Shown here in pieces: positions 10,281 to 20,000 of a DNA stretch of 20,000 nucleotides (the first letter of the stretch is position 1; each line of letters begins with the position of its first letter). Source of the DNA: an uncultured virus (IMG/VR IMGVR_UViG_3300000304_000038) (lineage: Duplodnaviria; Heunggongvirae; Uroviricota; Caudoviricetes); IMG/VR virus record IMGVR_UViG_3300000304_000038; one strand, written 5' to 3'. Position numbers and translations under genes: made by a program. The notes below the pieces were generated by a model. The model was given only the letters and a program-made list of their open reading frames with translations. It was not told the DNA's origin and searched no databases.

Positions 10281-10892
10281 TTATTTTATCAAAGATTTTT
10301 GTTCATATTCGAGATAAATATCCATTAGTTGATTCCATTGTTCATTATAACAACGTAAAGAATCAATCATAATATCTGCTAATTGATGAATCTCCCATTG
10401 AGCATGAACGTTTCTACGCTGTTCAAGGAGATTGAAGAGAGAGCGCACATTTATTTTCATATGTAAATTTGTTTTTGTCGCTTCTGGCAAGATAAAACGA
10501 GCATCTTCCGCTCTAACGCCATTAGCAAGCATTTTTTTATATTCGTCAGCAATATAAGCCATATCTATTTGATACTGATATAGAAGATTTTTATCATTTT
10601 TGATGATTGGAGGAATTACATACCAATCTTCACTATCTAGTTTATATTTATTATAACGTTGTGATTCGACGCAATAAGAAGCTATGCGATGACGTGTCAG
10701 TTGAGCTAGACAACTTCTAGAGATACCTTCAATTTTGAAAGTCACATCAGCAAATTCGTGGACACTGTGGCGATCTAAAATACAACGTTTCACTCTATTA
10801 TATTGCACATCGTTTTTCCGAGTGCTTTGTCCAGCAGCTAACGAAATTGCATCAATAGGTTTTTCTGTCGCGTCAATAACAATTACTTTCAT
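10281..10892 (-). CDS. thyX: FAD-dependent thymidylate synthase
   Basis: ISRSCLAQLTRHRIASYCVESQRY signature, EDARFILP, HAQWEI. Start taken at the ATG overlapping the upstream TGA. Confidence 0.95.
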   Translation of the reverse strand: MKVIVIDATEKPIDAISLAAGQSTRKNDVQYNRVKRCILDRHSVHEFADVTFKIEGISRSCLAQLTRHRIASYCVESQRYNKYKLDSEDWYVIPPIIKNDKNLLYQYQIDMAYIADEYKKMLANGVRAEDARFILPEATKTNLHMKINVRSLFNLLEQRRNVHAQWEIHQLADIMIDSLRCYNEQWNQLMDIYLEYEQKSLIK

Positions 10893-11908
10893 TGGACACA
10901 TCCTCCTAATATATAGTCTAAAGAAATTCTATCTAAATCCCAATATGGTATTCTTAGCAATTTTATATTTTTTTCTTCAGCATAATTGTCTTTGATTGTA
11001 TCACGAACGATTCGTTTTTGAAAAGATTCTAAATTATTCCAGCCCCCTGTCGGTTTGAAGTGTTGCTCTCCGTCAAATTCAATCAATAAATTATATTTAG
11101 ACAAGAAGAAATCAAAACGTAGCTTTTTCCCTGTTTTTGGATTTAGACAATCATCAAAAGAATATTCTGATTCATAATCTATATTATTACTATCCAGTAT
11201 TTTTTTGATTTTTTGCTCTCCTAATGAATAAATACGAAGTTCCTGTCTTCCGTCTACTCCATTATACAAAACGCTTCTCAAACGAGTATAAAAGAAAACG
11301 TCTAATTCAGAATTATAAAATTTTCCATACCTAACTGGATTATTCTTTTTGTCTAAAATAGGAGAAAGTTCTTCTACAAATAAAATATTTTCTTTTATCC
11401 AATCTCCTTCATTATATTTTCTGTTATTATGAGCAACATCTTGAATAACTTCAATACGTCGTTGTTTCCTATGTTGAGGTCCCATTGTCACTCTATCGTG
11501 GATAGCAGAATTGAGTAAAACGTCAAAAACTTCATTAGAATAAATATCTTTGACTCGTAAAGTTCTTTTTCTTTCTCCTGAAGCTGTTTCTTTTGGAGTA
11601 CCTTCACTAATATAAATAAGAGTATTGCTTGGATTCACAAATTCTCCTAGAGAAAAATTATAGTGCCTTCTGCTTTGATACGATAATTCTCGCCTAACAG
11701 ATGGAGCATGTTTTACTGTCCCAGCGCGTACACTTCCTACTGATGCTGAAAATATATTTTCTCCATCAGGAGCATCTATGTCTTTTACTAAGATACGTCT
11801 TTCTTTTACGCCGGATAAAGATATATGAGGTTCTGCTTCCCCAATATAAACAAGATTGCCTTCTTTGTTTACTGGTTCATTTTCTTTGTATATTATTTTT
11901 CTTCCCAT
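10889..11908 (-). CDS. Free-standing homing-type endonuclease (three N-terminal repeats plus PD-(D/E)xK/Vsr-like domain)
   Basis: SLGEQKI...LRFDFFL...IEFDGEQHF...RDTIKD...LLRIPY; repeats YKENEPVN/FSLGEFVN/YNEGDWI; AT-rich. Confidence 0.8.
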   Translation of the reverse strand: MGRKIIYKENEPVNKEGNLVYIGEAEPHISLSGVKERRILVKDIDAPDGENIFSASVGSVRAGTVKHAPSVRRELSYQSRRHYNFSLGEFVNPSNTLIYISEGTPKETASGERKRTLRVKDIYSNEVFDVLLNSAIHDRVTMGPQHRKQRRIEVIQDVAHNNRKYNEGDWIKENILFVEELSPILDKKNNPVRYGKFYNSELDVFFYTRLRSVLYNGVDGRQELRIYSLGEQKIKKILDSNNIDYESEYSFDDCLNPKTGKKLRFDFFLSKYNLLIEFDGEQHFKPTGGWNNLESFQKRIVRDTIKDNYAEEKNIKLLRIPYWDLDRISLDYILGGCVQ

Positions 11909-12950: not shown

Positions 12951-13039
12951 GGCGGAAACAAGAGGTCACGCTCCCCAACGAGTCTCCCCGTCACACCGCT
13001 TTCGAGGCGGGTGCAGCACGCTTGTCTGCTTTTGTTTCC
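12951..13039 (-). tRNA. tRNA-Ser(CGA)
   Basis: GGAAACA/TGTTTCC acceptor, loop CT-CGA-AA, long variable arm, G73; ends CC-TA. Confidence 0.85.
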
Positions 13040-13050
13040 GTAATATCTTA

Positions 13051-13139
13051 TGGCGGAAGGAGGATGTAACGCTCACCATACCCTTTCGGGCACCAACCGC
13101 TTTCCAAGCGGCGCTGAAGACTTCTTCAGTTCACCTTCC
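13051..13139 (-). tRNA. tRNA-Ser(GGA)
   Basis: Loop TT-GGA-AA, long variable arm, G-CCA. Confidence 0.88.
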
Positions 13140-13142
13140 ACA

Positions 13143-13232
13143 TGGCGGGGTAATAGGATTACGATTCCTATGGACGCAAGGCCCACGCTGGACTTAGCAG
13201 GTCCGCCCAAGTCCCCCTTGGTTATCTACCCC
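13143..13232 (-). tRNA. tRNA-Ser(GCT)
   Basis: Loop CT-GCT-AA, long variable arm, G-CCA. Confidence 0.88.
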
Positions 13233-13879: not shown

Positions 13880-13953
13880 TGGTGCCCAGTGAAGGTTATG
13901 CTCCTCCGTCTAAAGCTTGTAAGGCTATCATTCTACTATTGAACTAACCGGGC
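13880..13953 (-). tRNA. tRNA-Val(TAC)
   Basis: Loop CT-TAC-AA, A-CCA. Confidence 0.88.
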
Positions 13954-13956
13954 ATA

Positions 13957-14032
13957 GGTGGAGCTGGTGGAAATCGAATCCACGACCTATCGCTTGCAAG
14001 GCGATTGCTCGTCCCAACTGAGCTACAGCCCC
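13957..14032 (-). tRNA. tRNA-Ala(TGC)
   Basis: G3.U70 pair, loop CT-TGC-AA, canonical TTCGA; ends CC-TA. Confidence 0.93.
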
Positions 14033-14035
14033 ATA

Positions 14036-14113
14036 TGGTACCCACGGCATGACTCGAACATGCGACCTACTCATTCGTAGTGAGGTATTCTAAATCCGCT
14101 GAACTACGTGGGC
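14036..14113 (-). tRNA. tRNA-Arg(ACG)
   Basis: Loop CT-ACG-AA, TTCGA T-loop, CCA. Confidence 0.92.
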
Positions 14114-14454
14114 ATAATATCATCAAACTCGCCCGCAAGATAGAGCTTGGGAATGTTGTGTCCGGGCCTCAACTTGCGGTCGGTCAGATATTCAATGTTC
14201 ATCCAACTGCCATCTTTTGCTCTAAGAAAGCAATGAAACATCTTAGTATTCATATCATAGGTATATTTAGAATCCAAAAGGAGTATCTGGTTCGTATAGG
14301 CGACAATGATTTTATCTTTGCTCTCCTCCAAGGCCATGTCCGCAGTTTCAAGATTGTAGGAGACTCCATTCGCCGCATCGATATTTATTTGCGGATATAG
14401 TCTCCATCTTGCGTTTTTGACAAGCGGACCGTCCTCGAAATAAACTATTAGCAT
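14104..14454 (-). CDS. Hypothetical protein (116 aa); stop codon lies inside tRNA-Arg(ACG)
   Basis: AAAGGAG SD; fills the gap between two tRNAs. Confidence 0.8.
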   Translation of the reverse strand: MLIVYFEDGPLVKNARWRLYPQINIDAANGVSYNLETADMALEESKDKIIVAYTNQILLLDSKYTYDMNTKMFHCFLRAKDGSWMNIEYLTDRKLRPGHNIPKLYLAGEFDDIMPT

Positions 14455-14480
14455 AAGATACTCCTTTGATAATTTTTATA

Positions 14481-14554
14481 TGGCAGGCCCGGAAGGTACC
14501 GCCCCCTCGCTACGAAGTTTGGAGCTTCGCGTGCTCCTATTACACCACGGACCT
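14481..14554 (-). tRNA. tRNA-Trp(CCA)
   Basis: CGAAG-CT-CCA-AA-CTTCG arm, G-CCA. Confidence 0.9.
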
Positions 14555-14557
14555 GTA

Positions 14558-14631
14558 TGGCTGCTCTTCTAGGTGCCGCCCCTAGGACTTAACATCCAAA
14601 GTGTTAGGTTTTACTGTTAAACTAAAGAGCA
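14558..14631 (-). tRNA. tRNA-Gln(TTG)
   Basis: U1-A72, TAACA-CT-TTG-GA-TGTTA arm, G-CCA. Confidence 0.88.
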
Positions 14632-14634
14632 ATA

Positions 14635-14708
14635 TGGCTGGACTTAAAGGTGCTGCCCCTTTTTCTATTGAGTCAGAGTCAATCGTTTTACTGTTAAACT
14701 AAAGTCCA
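14635..14708 (-). tRNA. tRNA-Gln(CTG)
   Basis: U1-A72, loop CT-CTG-AC, G-CCA. Confidence 0.9.
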
Positions 14709-15446
14709 ATCATCATCTGAAATGCTACAAATCTCTCTCTTTTTAAATGGAAGATTATAAAATATACACCATTTCCTAATTGTGTTATCTCTAACACCAT
14801 ATTCTTTTCCTATTGCAGTGAAAGTTTGAGTTCTAATTTTAGATTTTAATTCTTCTCTAGAAGGTCTTTCTACTTTTCTTCTATTCTCCGCACTACATTC
14901 TGGACATAAAAGACTATAATCTGTTTTTAATTCTTTTCCACATTCTTGGCAGTATCTTTTTGGTCTTTCTATATAGGTTTTATTTTTACTTCCAAAAGTA
15001 GGTAATTGCCTATCGCAATTTGGACATACCCAACGAAGATTTTCAATTCTATTGTCTGTATGGTCTCCATTGATATGGTCTAATGTCAGAGTCAATTCTT
15101 TGTTATTCCATACAGGAGGCAATCCACAGATAGCACATTTATACTCTAATAAATCATGTTGCTTAATATATCTCTTAATATAGTTCATGGAAGCACTAGA
15201 ATGCTCGCAAAAAGAATTCTCAAAAGTTCTTTCTTCTTTTTTTGATGCCATAGCGCAAAAATGAGAATAGTCTATATTATTATCTTCTAATACAGCTCTA
15301 ACTATATCGTTTTGTTTTCCTCCGCTAACACACTGATAACCTATTTTTCTTTCAACTTCCTTAAAAGAAAACGAATTTGCAACAATTTCTCTTAATTCAT
15401 CAACGGGTATTTGTGAGACTAAGCTATTCATTGATTTCGACCGCAT
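14694..15446 (-). CDS. HNH homing-type endonuclease
   Basis: CAIC...LTLDHINGDHTDNRIENLRWVCPNC, a second Zn finger, and a C-terminal HTH-like segment; AT-rich; AAAGGA SD. Confidence 0.9.
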   Translation of the reverse strand: MRSKSMNSLVSQIPVDELREIVANSFSFKEVERKIGYQCVSGGKQNDIVRAVLEDNNIDYSHFCAMASKKEERTFENSFCEHSSASMNYIKRYIKQHDLLEYKCAICGLPPVWNNKELTLTLDHINGDHTDNRIENLRWVCPNCDRQLPTFGSKNKTYIERPKRYCQECGKELKTDYSLLCPECSAENRRKVERPSREELKSKIRTQTFTAIGKEYGVRDNTIRKWCIFYNLPFKKREICSISDDDWTLV

Positions 15447-15562
15447 AAACAAAATCCTTTCTTAGACAATAATATGTTGAGTTATATAAATACAAATTTA
15501 AAAAAGAGATTTTTATTTATAACGGCCCATAGATTTTCCTTTTTATAAATGAAAGTGCGAAA

Positions 15563-15697
15563 TTACTTATTCTGAGCCGCTTCCAGCTTCCAAATCTTTC
15601 TCTGAGTCTTCTGGAGAACGCCAGTCCCCTCAGAGTTCTTGCCGTTCAGAAGTAGACGCTGGTAGCGTGCCTTTAGAACCTCGATATCATTTGACAT
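15563..15697 (-). CDS. 44-aa hypothetical protein (MSNDIEVLKARY...)
   Basis: AAAAGGAG SD upstream of the ATG at 15697; the longer ORF-track start overlaps a tRNA. Confidence 0.65.
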   Translation of the reverse strand: MSNDIEVLKARYQRLLLNGKNSEGTGVLQKTQRKIWKLEAAQNK

Positions 15698-15733
15698 ATA
15701 TATTCTCCTTTTGTCTCTTGGATAATGACCATA

Positions 15734-15825
15734 TGGTGCGACCGACTCGACTTGAACGAGCAATGTGGTTTCTAAGCCACGCTACTTTAGGAGAGTAGTG
15801 CCTTATCCGATTAGGCTACGGCCGC
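15734..15825 (-). tRNA. tRNA-Arg(CCT) with long variable arm
   Basis: CTACT-CT-CCT-AA-AGTAG arm; extra arm GTGG-CTTAGAAA-CCAC; TTCAA T-loop; A-CCA. Confidence 0.88.
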
Positions 15826-15830
15826 ATAAA

Positions 15831-16039
15831 AAAAGAATACAATATAGAGAAGAGGGAGATAGGACTTTCATCTTACTTGGGCTTTCTCTGTATTATGGGA
15901 CTTATTGTATGCGCGCTTTTATTCGTCCCTGTCGGACCTCGGTGTTACTTATTCCGGCTTTTCACACCTACTACCTTCACCAATGCTGCTTCATAGCCGC
16001 GTATTCACCCAAAGCCTATTCTCTATATTGTATTCTTTT
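15831..16039 (-). ncRNA. Candidate ~209-nt structured RNA closed by a perfect 21-bp stem
   Basis: 15831-15851 and 16019-16039 are exact reverse complements; no credible ORF; strand inferred from the array. Confidence 0.55.
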
Positions 16040-16045
16040 GTAAAA

Positions 16046-16210
16046 TGTCAGCCTGTCCCCACCGACTTCTGACCCGACAAGCCATGTCTCCCAAGAGGTT
16101 GAGTGTGCGGCAAGAAGAAGCTAGCTAGTCTCCTTCTCACGGTCCTAACCAACGGTTACTAGTACGTTGGCGGATAAGCCTTTCACCAGCTCTCTGTGTC
16201 CCATCCATGA
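16046..16210 (-). ncRNA. Candidate ~165-nt multi-hairpin RNA
   Basis: GC-rich intergenic stretch with hairpins CCAACG/CGTTGG, GAGAAGGAG/CTTCTTCTT and GGCTTGTC/GACAGGCT. Confidence 0.45.
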
Positions 16211-16217
16211 TTATATA

Positions 16218-16559
16218 TTACGCTTTTTCCTTCAACTTGTCTACAACAAAATTGTATTCCTTTTCAGGAAGAAAACTTCTGGGTGCGCACTCGAAGAATA
16301 GGTCAACTTCCTCGGGAGACAATTCAACTCCCATGTAAAGCATCTTGTAACAATTGTGAGCAAAAGCGTATCTATCCTGAAATACGCTCTCATAGGGAAT
16401 TATTGCATCATCAAGTCTATCCAATAGAGAAATAGCTTTGCTGTATGCCTTTCTCTCTTCTCTTGAGAGAGAGGAGAGGTTCTTGTCTTGCGGGATAAAG
16501 TCATAACAAAAATCTTCGACAGCTCTCCGCAAGTCACAAAGCTTTGAATACTTACTCAT
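16218..16559 (-). CDS. Hypothetical protein (113 aa; likely start MSKYSKL)
   Basis: GAGGAG SD; ATG overlaps the upstream gene end. Confidence 0.75.
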   Translation of the reverse strand: MSKYSKLCDLRRAVEDFCYDFIPQDKNLSSLSREERKAYSKAISLLDRLDDAIIPYESVFQDRYAFAHNCYKMLYMGVELSPEEVDLFFECAPRSFLPEKEYNFVVDKLKEKA

Positions 16560-16842
16560 TTCTCTCCTCTTCTTGCGGCCAGAAATCCTCGTTGGAATAG
16601 CATAGCTTTGCACCGGGACAAAGATAGACCCAACAGTTGCGCTCGGTAGAATACCAGCGGCTAAGTCCGATAGTACCAAATGCGACTATTATCTCTTCAT
16701 CTCTTGAATCAACATGACAACAGCCTTTGATAAGACAGTATACGGCGGCTCGCCGCACCTTGAAGGAAGGATGGGAATAGGAAAGTTGATATAGATGGAA
16801 AAGAGGCGTGCCCTTTCGCCGCAAATAATCAAACTCACTCAC
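16552..16842 (-). CDS. Hypothetical protein (96 aa, GTG start)
   Basis: AAAGGA SD; coupled to the next ORF. Confidence 0.65.
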   Translation of the reverse strand: MSEFDYLRRKGTPLFHLYQLSYSHPSFKVRRAAVYCLIKGCCHVDSRDEEIIVAFGTIGLSRWYSTERNCWVYLCPGAKLCYSNEDFWPQEEERNE

Positions 16843-16871
16843 TACTTCATCCTTTCTCTTGGATAATTGAA

Positions 16872-16953
16872 TGGTAGCCGCACCCGGTTACGCTCCGAGG
16901 TCTGATGGCTGAGAACCATCCGGGCTGCTATTACCCNNNNNNNNNNTGCGGCC
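16872..16953 (-). tRNA. tRNA-Glu(CTC), contains a 10-N assembly gap
   Basis: GATGG-TT-CTC-AG-CCATC arm, GGCCGCA/TGCGGCT acceptor, CCA; Ns at 16937-16946. Confidence 0.85.
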
Positions 16954-16956
16954 ATA

Positions 16957-17031
16957 TGGTAGCGGATGGGGGTTACGCTCCCCCTTCTCTGGCTTGAAAG
17001 GCCAGCGAATTTACTATTGTTCTAATCCGCC
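16957..17031 (-). tRNA. tRNA-Glu(TTC)
   Basis: CTGGC-CT-TTC-AA-GCCAG arm, CCA. Confidence 0.9.
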
Positions 17032-17655
17032 AATAAAATATTTCCAAAAATATCCATATGCGCTTTTTCTTTTACCTTTGATTACTTCGGTAATATGCTG
17101 TGTTTTTCTTTCAGATCCTAAAAAACGTCCAGCCTCTTTTATAGATTCAAATATTTTCAATACTTGAAAAGTTTCTTTATCGCACATTGCAACCTTGTGA
17201 CTAAATAGCTTTTTTGCTTGTTTGCTTTGAGATAAAATTTCTACTCCATATTCTTTACAAGCTGTTCTCACGGTTCGTTCATTACAACCAAAATAAGAAG
17301 CAGTTTGTTGTTCATTGAGTAATTCAAGATATTTATTTGCTATTTCTTTATAGTTATAAAATTGTTTTCCATCTCCCCCACGAGTAGCATTATAACCATA
17401 ATGATAAGTGTTTAGTTTATCTATCCAATATTCTTCTCTGGCAGGAGCTTCTTCTGGAGAACATTCTTCTAATTCTTCAATAGAAAAATGTTCTACTCCA
17501 TATTTATTCATAGCACTATAAAGAGGACGTTTTTTGCGTCTTATTCTTTGTCTCTCTTTCTTGTGTTCTTCAAAACGGTCTTCTATCGTTTTATTAGTTT
17601 TACCAACATACTGTTTGCCATTTATATCATTAGTAATTACATAAATAAAGGCCAT
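17014..17655 (-). CDS. GIY-YIG homing-type endonuclease with C-terminal NUMOD1/IENR1-like module
   Basis: FIYVITN...QYVGKT...RFEEH...REEYWI...GYNATRGG; C-terminal FESIKEAGRFLG...KSAYGYFWKY. Confidence 0.9.
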   Translation of the reverse strand: MAFIYVITNDINGKQYVGKTNKTIEDRFEEHKKERQRIRRKKRPLYSAMNKYGVEHFSIEELEECSPEEAPAREEYWIDKLNTYHYGYNATRGGDGKQFYNYKEIANKYLELLNEQQTASYFGCNERTVRTACKEYGVEILSQSKQAKKLFSHKVAMCDKETFQVLKIFESIKEAGRFLGSERKTQHITEVIKGKRKSAYGYFWKYFIGGLEQ

Positions 17656-17765
17656 GATTCCCAACTTTCTACCCAACATCTGAATAAACAGATGGGCAGG
17701 TGGTTGGGTTTATTCACTTTTCACTAAGCTAGCTACTTCTTAGCTAGCCTATCTGTTATTAACAA

Positions 17766-17841
17766 TGGTCGGACTAGAAGGTTCTGCCCCCTCTCCACAC
17801 CGCCCCAAACGGTGGATGCTACTGTTAAACACCATAGTCCG
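17766..17841 (-). tRNA. tRNA-Pro(TGG)
   Basis: C1-G72, CACCG-TT-TGG-GG-CGGTG arm, A-CCA. Confidence 0.9.
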
Positions 17842-17966
17842 TTTTCTATACCAAATGGGGCGCAGCGTTTATTACCTTCATACTGACCTTCCTGCGCATC
17901 ATTGTTTATAGTGGTGCTCAACCACTGAGAACACTTGATTTGTTTGGCCCTTTGGTACCTAAATTA

Positions 17967-18039
17967 GGAGCGGCTGACCAGACTCGAACTGGCACTAACG
18001 ACTTGGAAGGACGTGGTGCTACCGTTACACCACAGCCGC
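17967..18039 (-). tRNA. tRNA-Gly(TCC)
   Basis: GCG acceptor start, loop CT-TCC-AA, U73; ends CC-TA. Confidence 0.92.
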
Positions 18040-18042
18040 ATA

Positions 18043-18118
18043 TGGGGTGACTATTTGGATTTGAACCAAAGCTAAGTGAGTCACAGTCACTTGTGCTGAC
18101 CTCTACACTATAGCCACC
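18043..18118 (-). tRNA. tRNA-His(GTG)
   Basis: Encoded G-1:C73, loop CT-GTG-AC, CCA. Confidence 0.93.
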
Positions 18119-18122
18119 AATA

Positions 18123-18197
18123 GGAGCGGCACAGGGGCTATGCTCCCCTCACTTTTGCGTTGGCAACGCAATGCTCTTCTGAATGAGCTAGTGCCGC
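18123..18197 (-). tRNA. tRNA-Gly(GCC)
   Basis: TTGCG-TT-GCC-AA-CGCAA arm, U73; ends CC-TA. Confidence 0.88.
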
Positions 18198-18207
18198 ATA
18201 TAAGACA

Positions 18208-18284
18208 TGGCGCGAATGGCGGGACTTGAACCCGCGACCTCCTGATTGACAATCAGGCGTTCTAACCAGCTGAACTACACCCGC
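18208..18284 (-). tRNA. tRNA-Asp(GTC)
   Basis: CCTGA-TT-GTC-AA-TCAGG arm, G-CCA. Confidence 0.92.
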
Positions 18285-18288
18285 ATAT

Positions 18289-18362
18289 TGGTTGCAAGGT
18301 CCGGTAACGCTCCGGCTTGTAAGCGCTTATGAGACGCTTCGAGAACTTTCCTCCCCCTTGCA
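18289..18362 (-). tRNA. tRNA with CAT anticodon (Met; Ile2 not excluded)
   Basis: AGCGT-CT-CAT-AA-GCGCT arm, U1-A72, short D-arm, A-CCA. Confidence 0.8.
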
Positions 18363-18365
18363 ATA

Positions 18366-18441
18366 TGGTCGCAGTGACTAGAGTCGAACTAGCTGTCTCT
18401 GGCTTATGAGGCCAGCATGGAAACCGTTTCACCCCACTGCT
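18366..18441 (-). tRNA. tRNA-Met(CAT), initiator-like
   Basis: A1.G72 mismatch, CTGGC-CT-CAT-AA-GCCAG arm, A-CCA; lacks the full three G-C anticodon pairs. Confidence 0.82.
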
Positions 18442-18447
18442 ATATAT

Positions 18448-18549
18448 GAGAGAACAACCTTCTACAAGGCACCAGCGAAGGCCAAGTGACAAGCTTGACT
18501 CTTTCCTTGCGGGAGCACTGGTATCTGGGGTGTGACCCTTTGCTCTCTC
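18448..18549 (-). ncRNA. Candidate ~100-nt structured RNA at a transcript 5' end
   Basis: Closing stem GAGAGAGCAA/TTGTTCTCTC; inner ACCAGTG/CGCTGGT; GCAA tetraloop. Confidence 0.5.
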
Positions 18550-18561
18550 TTGTCGATGAAT

Positions 18562-18591
18562 ATTATACAACAAGTCAAAGACTGTTGTCCA
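18562..18591 (-). promoter_or_regulatory. Promoter TGGACA-18-TATAAT
   Basis: -35 at 18586-18591, -10 at 18562-18567; the spacer is itself a hairpin. Confidence 0.65.
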
Positions 18592-18593
18592 TA

Positions 18594-18727
18594 ATATTTT
18601 TGGAAAACACTAGTTGAAATCCCAAGCTTATGCGAACTGGTGGCAATGCGACTAATGCTCTCCAAAAATATGACTGATTTTTTGATCTTTCCACTGTAGC
18701 AGGAACTCTCTTGGAAAAAATCAGTCA
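18594..18727 (-). ncRNA. Two abutting long-stem hairpin elements (18594-18671, 18671-18727)
   Basis: 21-bp stem with three G.U pairs only on the minus strand, and a perfect 13-bp stem. Confidence 0.5.
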
Positions 18728-19236
18728 AAAACCATTAGAAACCGCTGCGACGTTTCAGGGTATTTTACTCGGTGCCCCGCGTCCAAGTATCCGAGACCGG
18801 TTTTCCTCTGTTTTAGTGAGTGACAAGTAAACCGCGTTGAAACCCCATACCTCCAACTCATTCTTTCTTCCAGTAGTCCGATCGGCTTAGTCACTATGGA
18901 AGCGAAGAACCTAAGAGAGGAGAATTCGTTTTTGGACAGAACCAATCCTCAAAGCATAACTGTTGGTGGTGAGGAAGTAAAAAATAGCATTAGTCTTGCA
19001 GGAAGTGGCTGTTGCTTTCTTTACACCTCGTCGTTCGGCGTATCAGTTTTTTACTGACACGCTGCCTCATGCCGCAAACCCCTATGGCGCGACAACTATT
19101 CGAACCAGCCCTACGCGAGTGACGCATTCTCCTCTTTCGAGTAACCCATTCTCGGGCCTTATGCTACCAGAGTTATTCGCTCTGACAGGGAACTTCGAAT
19201 CCGCTGCTCTCCACTCAGAACCGTCTTATAGCCAAA
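18728..19236 (-). ncRNA. Candidate large (~500 nt) structured ncRNA in the tRNA array
   Basis: No credible ORF; many hairpins and several long-range helices (see findings). Confidence 0.6.
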
Positions 19237-19239
19237 ATA

Positions 19240-19313
19240 TGGTGGTCTCGACAGGTAACGCTCCTGTGTTTTGGGTTTATCAGACCCATGTACTACTTTT
19301 GTACGACAAGACC
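19240..19313 (-). tRNA. tRNA-Ile(GAT)
   Basis: TGGGT-CT-GAT-AA-ACCCA arm, A-CCA. Confidence 0.9.
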
Positions 19314-19315
19314 AA

Positions 19316-19581
19316 TGGTACGCCCGCTCAGGATCGAACTGAGATCGAAGGATTACTTACTACGTCGCTTTCACATCGTAGTCTGGACTTTATCTTCTTC
19401 TCTTGGAGAAGCCTCGTGTAAAGTCTCTACACATAGATTCAAGAAGAATCCTTGCTCGGTATTGGCGTATTGCATTTGCAACTTAGCTTCCACCGACTTA
19501 GCGAGGTTTTCCACTATTGGTTGCCCAATAGCGCTCCTAATTAGTCAAGAGTCCCCTATTCTACCATTGAACTACGGGCAC
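19316..19581 (-). tRNA. tRNA-Lys(CTT) split by a group I intron (exons 19548-19581 and 19316-19355)
   Basis: Joined exons give a complete cloverleaf: GTGCCCG/CGGGCGT acceptor, GGGGA-CT-CT|T-AA-TCCTT arm, TTCGA, A-CCA. Confidence 0.9.
19356..19547 (-). mobile_element. 192-nt ORF-less group I intron at tRNA position 35/36
   Basis: 5' exon ends in U paired to G in P1 (CUCU|UGA...UUAGGAG); P7 elements GUAGAGACUUU and AAGAUAAAGUCC; terminal G. Confidence 0.9.
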
Positions 19582-19593
19582 GTATAAACAATA

Positions 19594-19678
19594 TGGTCCC
19601 GCCTCTAGGTACCGCCCCTAGCCAGTCATAGACACAGGTTTTACAGACCTGCTCACGTCTTTAGTGATATACGACGGG
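19594..19678 (-). tRNA. tRNA-Tyr(GTA) with C1-G72
   Basis: CAGGT-CT-GTA-AA-ACCTG arm, small variable stem GTC-TAT-GAC, A-CCA. Confidence 0.85.
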
Positions 19679-19681
19679 ATA

Positions 19682-19760: not shown

Positions 19761-19854
19761 TGGTCGGACGTCTGTGATTCGAACACAAGATTCGCGCTAA
19801 TCTGGCACTAATACACTTTATAGGAGTGTTGTTTTTCTACTAAACTAACGCCCG
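19761..19854 (-). tRNA. tRNA-Ile(TAT)-like with long variable arm and C33
   Basis: CGGGCGT/ACGTCCG acceptor, ACACT-CC-TAT-AA-AGTGT arm, extra arm GTGC-CAGATTA-GCGC, TTCGAAT, A-CCA. Confidence 0.8.
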
Positions 19855-19971: not shown

Positions 19972-20000
19972 ATTATCCTCTTTTTCAAACTTGGTGTCAA
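19972..20000 (-). promoter_or_regulatory. Promoter TTGACA-17-GATAAT driving the tRNA/ncRNA array
   Basis: Consensus -35 at 19995-20000 and a 5/6 -10 at 19972-19977. Confidence 0.6.

Follow-up and report, generated by a model that had tools for sequence, protein, structure and literature searches.

The window analysed here is a 20,000-nt stretch of DNA from an uncultured gut virus of the Caudoviricetes (IMG/VR record IMGVR_UViG_3300000304_000038). Besides gyrase B-like, PhoH, ThyX, and Band 7 genes, it carries a long cluster of tRNAs that includes free-standing HNH and GIY-YIG endonuclease genes, as expected of the phage context assumed in an earlier reading of the letters (the sequence-only reading). 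On the minus strand, from 19581 to 19316, a tRNA-Lys(CUU) gene is divided into a 34-nt exon, a 192-nt intron, and a 40-nt exon. The intron is a group I intron without an ORF, and it lies inside the anticodon. The features of the locus are listed in Table 1.

Table 1. Positions of the split tRNA-Lys(CUU) gene, the elements of its intron, and neighbouring features in the window.
Feature	Position	Strand	Basis
tRNA-Lys(CUU) 5' exon, tRNA positions 1-35, 34 nt, last base U35	19548..19581	-	junction reconstruction
Group I intron, 192 nt, without ORF, omega-G = 19356	19356..19547	-	RF00028, 46.7 bits, E 7.1e-11; own model R1
tRNA-Lys(CUU) 3' exon, U36 through encoded CCA, 40 nt	19316..19355	-	junction reconstruction
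P1, exon C32-U35 with internal guide; U35 (19548) pairs with G (19537)	19534..19551	-	fold; guide covariation
Possible P10, intron nt 7-10 with exon nt 36-39	19538-19541 (intron side)	-	read from sequence
P2 hairpin, 8 bp, GCAA tetraloop	19513..19532	-	both partners vary in 8/8 pairs; pairing in 93.5% of cells
P3	19506-19502 with 19416-19412	-	99.4% paired
P4	19496-19491 with 19461-19456	-	98.9% paired
J4/5, P5 with tetraloop-receptor-like motif, P6/P6a with 5-nt loop (19445-19441)	within 19412..19506	-	
P7, bulged A, G-C pair 19425/19386	19427-19421 with 19390-19385	-	100% paired in 31 sequences
P8 hairpin	19411-19397	-	
P9.0/P9, GAAA tetraloop	19359..19382	-	fold, alignment
Free-standing GIY-YIG endonuclease gene	17014..17679	-	PF01541, E 1.5e-11; end overlaps 5' end of tRNA-Glu(UUC)
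Free-standing HNH endonuclease gene	14694..15452	-	PF13392, E 5e-6; end overlaps 5' end of tRNA 14638-14708
Sigma-70-like promoter match, 11/12	19972..20000	-	upstream of tRNA run Ile(UAU)-Phe-Tyr-Lys-Ile(GAU)

Eight candidate junctions have a U before the cut and a G at the end of the intron; only one of them yields a tRNA of 74 nt whose loop has 7 nt and whose anticodon, split between U35 and U36, is CUU. Joining of the exons after the terminal omega-G (19356) thus restores a functional-looking tRNA-Lys(CUU), with five G.U pairs in its stems. The sequence-only reading had placed a 192-nt group I intron at 35/36 of this tRNA and had named a different anticodon at the junction as the result that would count against it; both the RF00028 match and the junction, the only tRNA-like one being that which restores CUU, agree with the reading. 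No ORF of the kind encoded by mobile group I introns is found in the 192 nt, in which the longest stop-free stretch in six frames is 63 codons and the P6a loop has only 5 nt; the absence of an ORF had also been noticed earlier.

Standard gene finders handle this locus poorly, as had been foreseen. ARAGORN with default settings does not report the split gene, and the intron is absent from the matches of an Rfam scan of the whole window. When introns are allowed, ARAGORN calls the gene Leu(AAG) with a 190-nt intron. This reading was rejected because its cut falls after U33, a base that is A-paired in P1, and because the resulting arm is longer and mispaired. A cut after U36 was also rejected, since the intron would then not end in G. 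In a local search of a 451-base region, RF00028 (Intron_gpI) matches 19362-19559 with 46.7 bits (E 7.1e-11), just below the gathering score of 50, while a covariance model of our own (R1), which was built partly from the window sequence, scores the intron at 177 bits. Such tRNAs are lost or misassigned by default tools (Lys to nothing, or to Leu(AAG)), and phage tRNA counts and the codon arguments that use them are biased as a result.

Several other tRNAs in the cluster (13880-19680, minus strand) are unseen by default ARAGORN, and many of them have non-canonical T loops. Val(UAC), Gln(UUG), Met, and Ile(GAU) were recovered with Rfam or relaxed ARAGORN settings. Others were read by eye on the same strand: Trp(CCA) at 14484-14554, Gln(CUG) at 14638-14708 at the end of the HNH gene, Pro(UGG) at about 17767-17841, a second CAU tRNA at about 18290-18365, Tyr(GUA) at about 19594-19680, and one near 16871-16952 that contains Ns. 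The tRNA called Ile(UAU) (19761-19854, minus strand) is 94 nt long with an unusually extended anticodon region, and other sequence is found at this place in run X11. At relaxed ARAGORN settings a permuted tmRNA is called at 12951-13168 (plus strand), and it overlaps another call of that strand, which resembles Ser(CGA). Behind tRNA-Ile(GAU), about 600 nt (18630-19238, minus strand) hold no credible ORF and match no Rfam family (fold z -1.26); the stretch is kept in close strains and is possibly an undescribed structured RNA. ROOL RNA lies inside the tRNA clusters of three related phages. Two endonuclease-like ORFs (1580-2653 and 10889-11908, minus strand), whose Pfam matches are weak or absent, have ends that overlap the starts of the gyrase B-like gene and thyX.

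The intron together with a few exon bases folds with a z score of -3.99 (200 shuffles), and none of the 54 modelled pairs is non-standard in the window sequence. Across 31 aligned introns 88.8% of the cells are paired (68.5% in shuffled alignments) and covariation is 0.493 (0.155 shuffled), in a structure that was drawn on the window's own sequence and that is for this reason favoured in the slide control. The P3/P7 pseudoknot, the bulged A, and the P4-P6 domain of the group I core are all present, together with a G-C pair in P7 (19425/19386) that we take to be the guanosine site. The sequence-only reading was right about the U.G pair of P1, about P7, whose strands lie in AGAGAC and AAGAUA contexts, and about the G at the end of the intron. 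By these features the intron is a group I intron, predicted to be self-splicing. The guide base opposite position 34 differs between hosts: among the matches listed, 131 of 187 Asn(GUU) genes have C, five of six Lys(CUU) genes have G, and 12 of 14 Lys(UUU) genes have either G or A. Across relatives the guide base thus tracks anticodon base 34, which offers an independent check on the splice site. Subgroup IC3 is marked by the presence of P2, the lack of P5abc and P2.1, GNRA loops in L2 and L9, and a receptor in P5. In its layout (fold and alignment) the intron fits IC3, and this subgroup is likely.

Four close strains were found as contigs in four runs from four studies (chicken gut or bird metagenomes), with the gene about 95% identical. 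All four contigs span the intron and no contig joint skips it; the run labelled RNA is probably DNA, so that the contigs bear on neither expression nor splicing. Five intron differences, among the 40 of 231 differences listed, lie in loops (intron nt 6, 71, and 105) or run towards the consensus (nt 58 in all four runs, nt 81 in three of four). At nt 58 (19490, in J4/5) the window has G, whereas A is found in 30 of the 31 aligned sequences and in every one of the four close strains. Therefore, the window copy may splice less well, or the base may be an assembly error. It could be argued from this replacement of a near-invariant A that the tRNA gene is dispensable and its intron a relic, decaying and impaired in splicing, the more so as a base that is U in 27 of 31 sequences is C here, the terminal branch is long (0.38), and the tRNA has several G.U pairs. 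However, every modelled pair is intact, the differences of the close strains (again among the 40 of 231 listed) avoid helices in intron and exons alike, and the intronless gene of a relative has an identical anticodon stem. Dispensability also fits poorly with the lack of a second Lys tRNA in the 20-kb window, where ARAGORN and the Rfam scan found none. Decay is hence regarded as very improbable. The promoter-like match upstream of the tRNA run is one of three found (1.9 in shuffles) and is a match to the consensus only. In the core ORFs (n=12), AAG occurs 121 times and AAA 74 times.

The nearest cultured matches of the window are 38% (Arthrobacter phages) and 33% identical, and a scan with a 116-aa ORF found no relatives. 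The locus had no blastn match in 50,697 phage records. The intron of a relative gave 11 weak matches in the same records, of which two annotated ones are introns in a helicase gene. In another of the 11, LR756501.1 (a 735-kb phage record in GenBank), the intron model matches over its full length (123 bits, at L366 1444-1651).

To survey the family, loci were collected with a pattern of the P7 3' strand, omega-G, U36-A37-A38, and a T loop, which is blind to tRNAs without U36. The pattern found 76 viral, at least 120 genome, and at least 120 metagenome loci. A tRNA split at 35/36 could be rebuilt from 25 of the 76 viral loci and, among the matches listed, from 96 of 120 loci in genomes and 86 of 120 in metagenomes; these 207 of 316 loci are labelled Asn(GUU) in 187 cases, Lys(UUU) in 14, and Lys(CUU) in 6. 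Two of the 207 (L276, labelled CUU, and L051, labelled UUU) have a guide that fits Asn and were not used as Lys evidence. Firm Lys(CUU) relatives among the matches listed number five: a phage (L029), an Acidobacteriota bin (L139), a Clostridia bin (L164) in which the gene adjoins mecA and D-Ala-D-Ala ligase, and two metagenome contigs. The host and site had earlier been called unusual, a view that these counts do not support. The closest blastn match of the window intron, again among the matches listed, is L029 (76% over 161 nt). An exon pattern search gave one true tRNA among eight matches.

The Lys(CUU) members are not a single clade in a tree of 40 introns, in which the window intron, on its long terminal branch, has no well-supported sister. 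A single origin of the six Lys(CUU) introns was rejected (p-AU 5.4e-6, from 211 columns of uneven composition). This suggests repeated host switching, as far as 211 columns can tell. Apart from the 35/36 family, 207-nt group I introns followed by an HNH gene occur in tRNA-Leu(CAA) of two related phages (L334 12046-12336 and L081 6383-6665). Further model matches in viral tRNA regions (L339 1934-2137, 75 bits; L357 2797-2981, 43 bits; L353 3854-4064, 91 bits) are probably introns in other tRNAs.

The endonucleases associated with the family were studied in 28 viral loci with 4-kb flanks, 27 of which have the 35/36 junction; these loci hold 226 tRNA genes. There were 71 ORFs in or beside tRNAs, and 60 of them were scanned, the other 11 being from near-duplicate contigs. 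PF11645, a PD-(D/E)XK family, gave 11 matches among the 60, eight inside an intron-bearing tRNA and three directly upstream of one; none of the 60 ORFs matched PF11645 away from such a tRNA. All eight introns of 586-624 nt hold a PF11645 ORF between P4 and P7 and match the intron model in two halves. Three of the 17 short introns have PF11645 directly upstream, all three in Lys genes (L346, L351, L363), and two further short introns have DUF559 nuclease-like neighbours. Two doubtful loci (L356 and L362, 'AUU', 1190 nt) are outside the eight long and 17 short introns.

Related phages, defined as those that share the Band 7 gene of the window, contain both states of the site. In the complete phage G002, a single PF11645 gene ends 2 nt upstream of an intron-bearing Lys(CUU) gene; this phage also has an intron in Leu(CAA), behind which lies an HNH gene. 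In the complete phage G003, Lys(CUU) is intronless, and neither the family intron nor PF11645 is found; the gene shares 28 bases across the site with the window exons. Among 23 related-phage loci, Lys(CUU) is intronless in six and PF11645 matches at the G002 locus only. L392 is about 95% identical in its flanks to L391/G002, and its tRNA block is intronless and endonuclease-free where the other has both intron and endonuclease; the difference is one of block exchange and not a precise homing event.

In the window itself, a six-frame search found no PF11645 (best E 0.034); since only 419 nt of the window lie upstream of the tRNA, such a gene may be present elsewhere in the genome. It may nevertheless be asked if homing is still active in this genome, with the GIY-YIG, the HNH, or an unseen PF11645 enzyme cutting intronless Lys(CUU) genes at 35/36 and the intron conferring immunity, as in the collaborative homing and the T4 SegB described in the accessible parts of PMC3984707 and PMC2988022. 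The placement of PF11645 directly upstream of ORF-less, intron-bearing Lys genes points this way, as does the intronless allele of G003. In one close strain, on a contig of run X1, the intron-bearing Lys gene is also followed after 37 nt by a homologue of the 5' part of the window's GIY-YIG gene (42 differences and 4 gaps over 415 nt), and the window HNH protein has a C-terminal domain in common with the PF11645 protein of G002 (39% over 87 aa). However, PF11645 is the enzyme that the window lacks, and the two nuclease genes of the window end on other tRNAs, 1.6 and 3.9 kb from the Lys gene. In G003 the intronless allele coexists with a homologue of the GIY-YIG gene that is 60% identical over its length; if specificity were shared, that genome would risk cutting itself, though 60% identity leaves the specificity unsettled. 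In addition, all four close strains carry the intron, so few targets would be left among them. Homing by an enzyme of the same genome therefore appears unlikely. Mobilisation in trans, as proposed earlier, is plausible for the family, but its partner there is PF11645; the HNH and GIY-YIG enzymes then put forward are weak candidates, although the X1 contig speaks for the latter.

A common C-terminal domain of 55-85 aa (39-59% identity) is found in PD-(D/E)XK and HNH nucleases encoded in these tRNA clusters, namely the products of L334 10603-11355 (the PF11645 protein of G002), L335 9298-9894, L334 12486-13334, and window 14694-15452. It may be read as a sign of domain shuffling among tRNA-linked endonucleases.

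The sequence-only reading had also suggested that the unspliced precursor is a nuclease-resistant reservoir, the anticodon loop being hidden from host anticodon nucleases until fresh tRNA-Lys is released. Phage tRNAs can counter tRNA-cutting defences, according to the accessible literature. The accessible text of the PARIS paper (PMC12409363) gives Lys(UUU) as the target of AriB and PrrC, with U36AAUC/A41 as the AriB site, and lists as AriB targets Lys(UUU) and Asn(GUU), both hosts of the intron family; moreover, the intron separates the U36-A-A-U motif that AriB reads there. The statement that tRNA-Lys is a target of PrrC and PARIS thus holds for Lys(UUU), but CUU is unmentioned in that text, and a C at position 41, the base found here along with the anticodon CUU, lowers AriB cleavage according to the same source. 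The mature tRNA would be as exposed as an intronless one, since the spliced anticodon arm is identical to that of the intronless relative. The site is also mostly occupied in bacterial genome contigs (96/120 among the matches listed), where selfish homing suffices and defence is unneeded, and related phages (L077, L080, L387, L392-L394) lack the intron. A role in counter-defence is thus scarcely credible, and the reservoir finds no support.

Overall, the intron is probably a self-splicing passenger derived from homing, which has lost its endonuclease and is kept because only exact excision restores the tRNA. According to this explanation, the pre-tRNA would be transcribed within the phage tRNA run, and the compact, IC3-like ribozyme would pair its internal guide with C32-U35. 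A free guanosine bound in P7 would then cut after U35, P10 would align the 3' exon, and the omega-G would drive ligation to U36, giving an ordinary tRNA-Lys(CUU) predicted to read AAG codons. The family occupies 35/36 of tRNAs with U35-U36 (Asn GUU, Lys UUU, and Lys CUU) and would spread by homing with a PF11645 enzyme, whose gene lies either within P6 or immediately before the tRNA and whose presumed target is the intronless site. The window intron may have arrived by such homing and been inherited vertically since, its enzyme, now absent nearby, having been lost rather than never present. Persistence without the enzyme would follow from the fact that imprecise loss destroys the anticodon. 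As a whole, the earlier interpretation is partly supported.

A broader scheme can be put forward tentatively, as a serious possibility that is slightly less likely than not. Phage tRNA clusters may host an undescribed form of collaborative homing, in which ORF-less 35/36 introns confer immunity against a PD-(D/E)XK enzyme that cuts the anticodons of U35-U36 tRNA genes. The endonuclease gene would shuttle between the P6 region and the place before the tRNA, and a single guide base would suffice for host switches among Asn(GUU), Lys(UUU), and Lys(CUU). The window intron would then represent an orphaned stage, which could be mobilised again when G002 or a similar relative infects the same cell. 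Two points are worth following up: the association with PF11645 throughout the family, and the presence in one phage group of intronless alleles beside alleles with both intron and endonuclease. These alleles make homing into a tRNA anticodon directly testable.

The phage tRNA setting appears thinly described so far. According to the accessible part of a 2014 review (PMC3984707), group I introns of phages had been seen in protein genes only, although tRNA genes are numerous in phages. A literature search of titles and abstract openings, with most subscription papers outside its scope, found no group I introns in phage tRNA genes. The word 'intron' is absent from the main text of Al-Shayeb 2020 (PMC7162821), and the accessible parts of PMC11835236, PMC8172020, and PMC12386605 do not describe phage tRNA introns.

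Among known systems, a tRNA anticodon intron with a PD-(D/E)XK endonuclease resembles the long relatives found here, whereas the window copy has no ORF and sits at 35/36 of Lys. Introns at 35/36 were reportedly found in 2025 in tRNA-Asn(GUU) and tRNA-Asp(GUC) of Patescibacteria, and Asn(GUU) members from Patescibacteria-labelled contigs occur in our survey among the matches listed; the position is the same, but the window intron is in another tRNA and in a phage. The Azoarcus Ile and cyanobacterial Leu(UAA) introns (IC3) presumably share with it the compact core without large peripheral domains, the location in the anticodon loop, the GNRA loops of P2 and P9, and the receptor-like motif in P5. 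It differs from them in host tRNA and site, in its short P8 hairpin, in being phage-encoded, and in length, its 192 nt lying below the 205 nt given for the Azoarcus pre-tRNA-Ile model in the accessible part of PMC13168695. Leu(UAA), fMet, Ile(CAU), and Arg(CCU), which the sequence-only reading had named as the classic hosts, are indeed the four classical bacterial cases, but Williams 2020 (bioRxiv 10.1101/2020.01.27.920355) widened them to 21. With those bacterial introns the window intron shares U at -1, omega-G, the P1 wobble, the anticodon loop, and a typical size, and by the naming rule of that study (after the fourth loop base, U-1, omega-G) it is a Lys.4Ug intron. That survey covered bacterial and archaeal assemblies and no phage contigs, whereas the present intron is from a phage. 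Collaborative homing combines a free-standing endonuclease with an ORF-less intron, the example being psbA, a protein gene (PMC3984707, accessible part), while SegB sits in the T4 tRNA cluster without an intron (PMC2988022, a 2010 review, accessible part). The window resembles this pattern in that its intron has no ORF and the phage has many free-standing endonucleases, and its relatives show the paired layout; unlike psbA and SegB, the intron is in a tRNA gene and the partner of the window copy is only putative. The intron is one more member of a widespread tRNA intron family, minus the endonuclease that many of its relatives carry.
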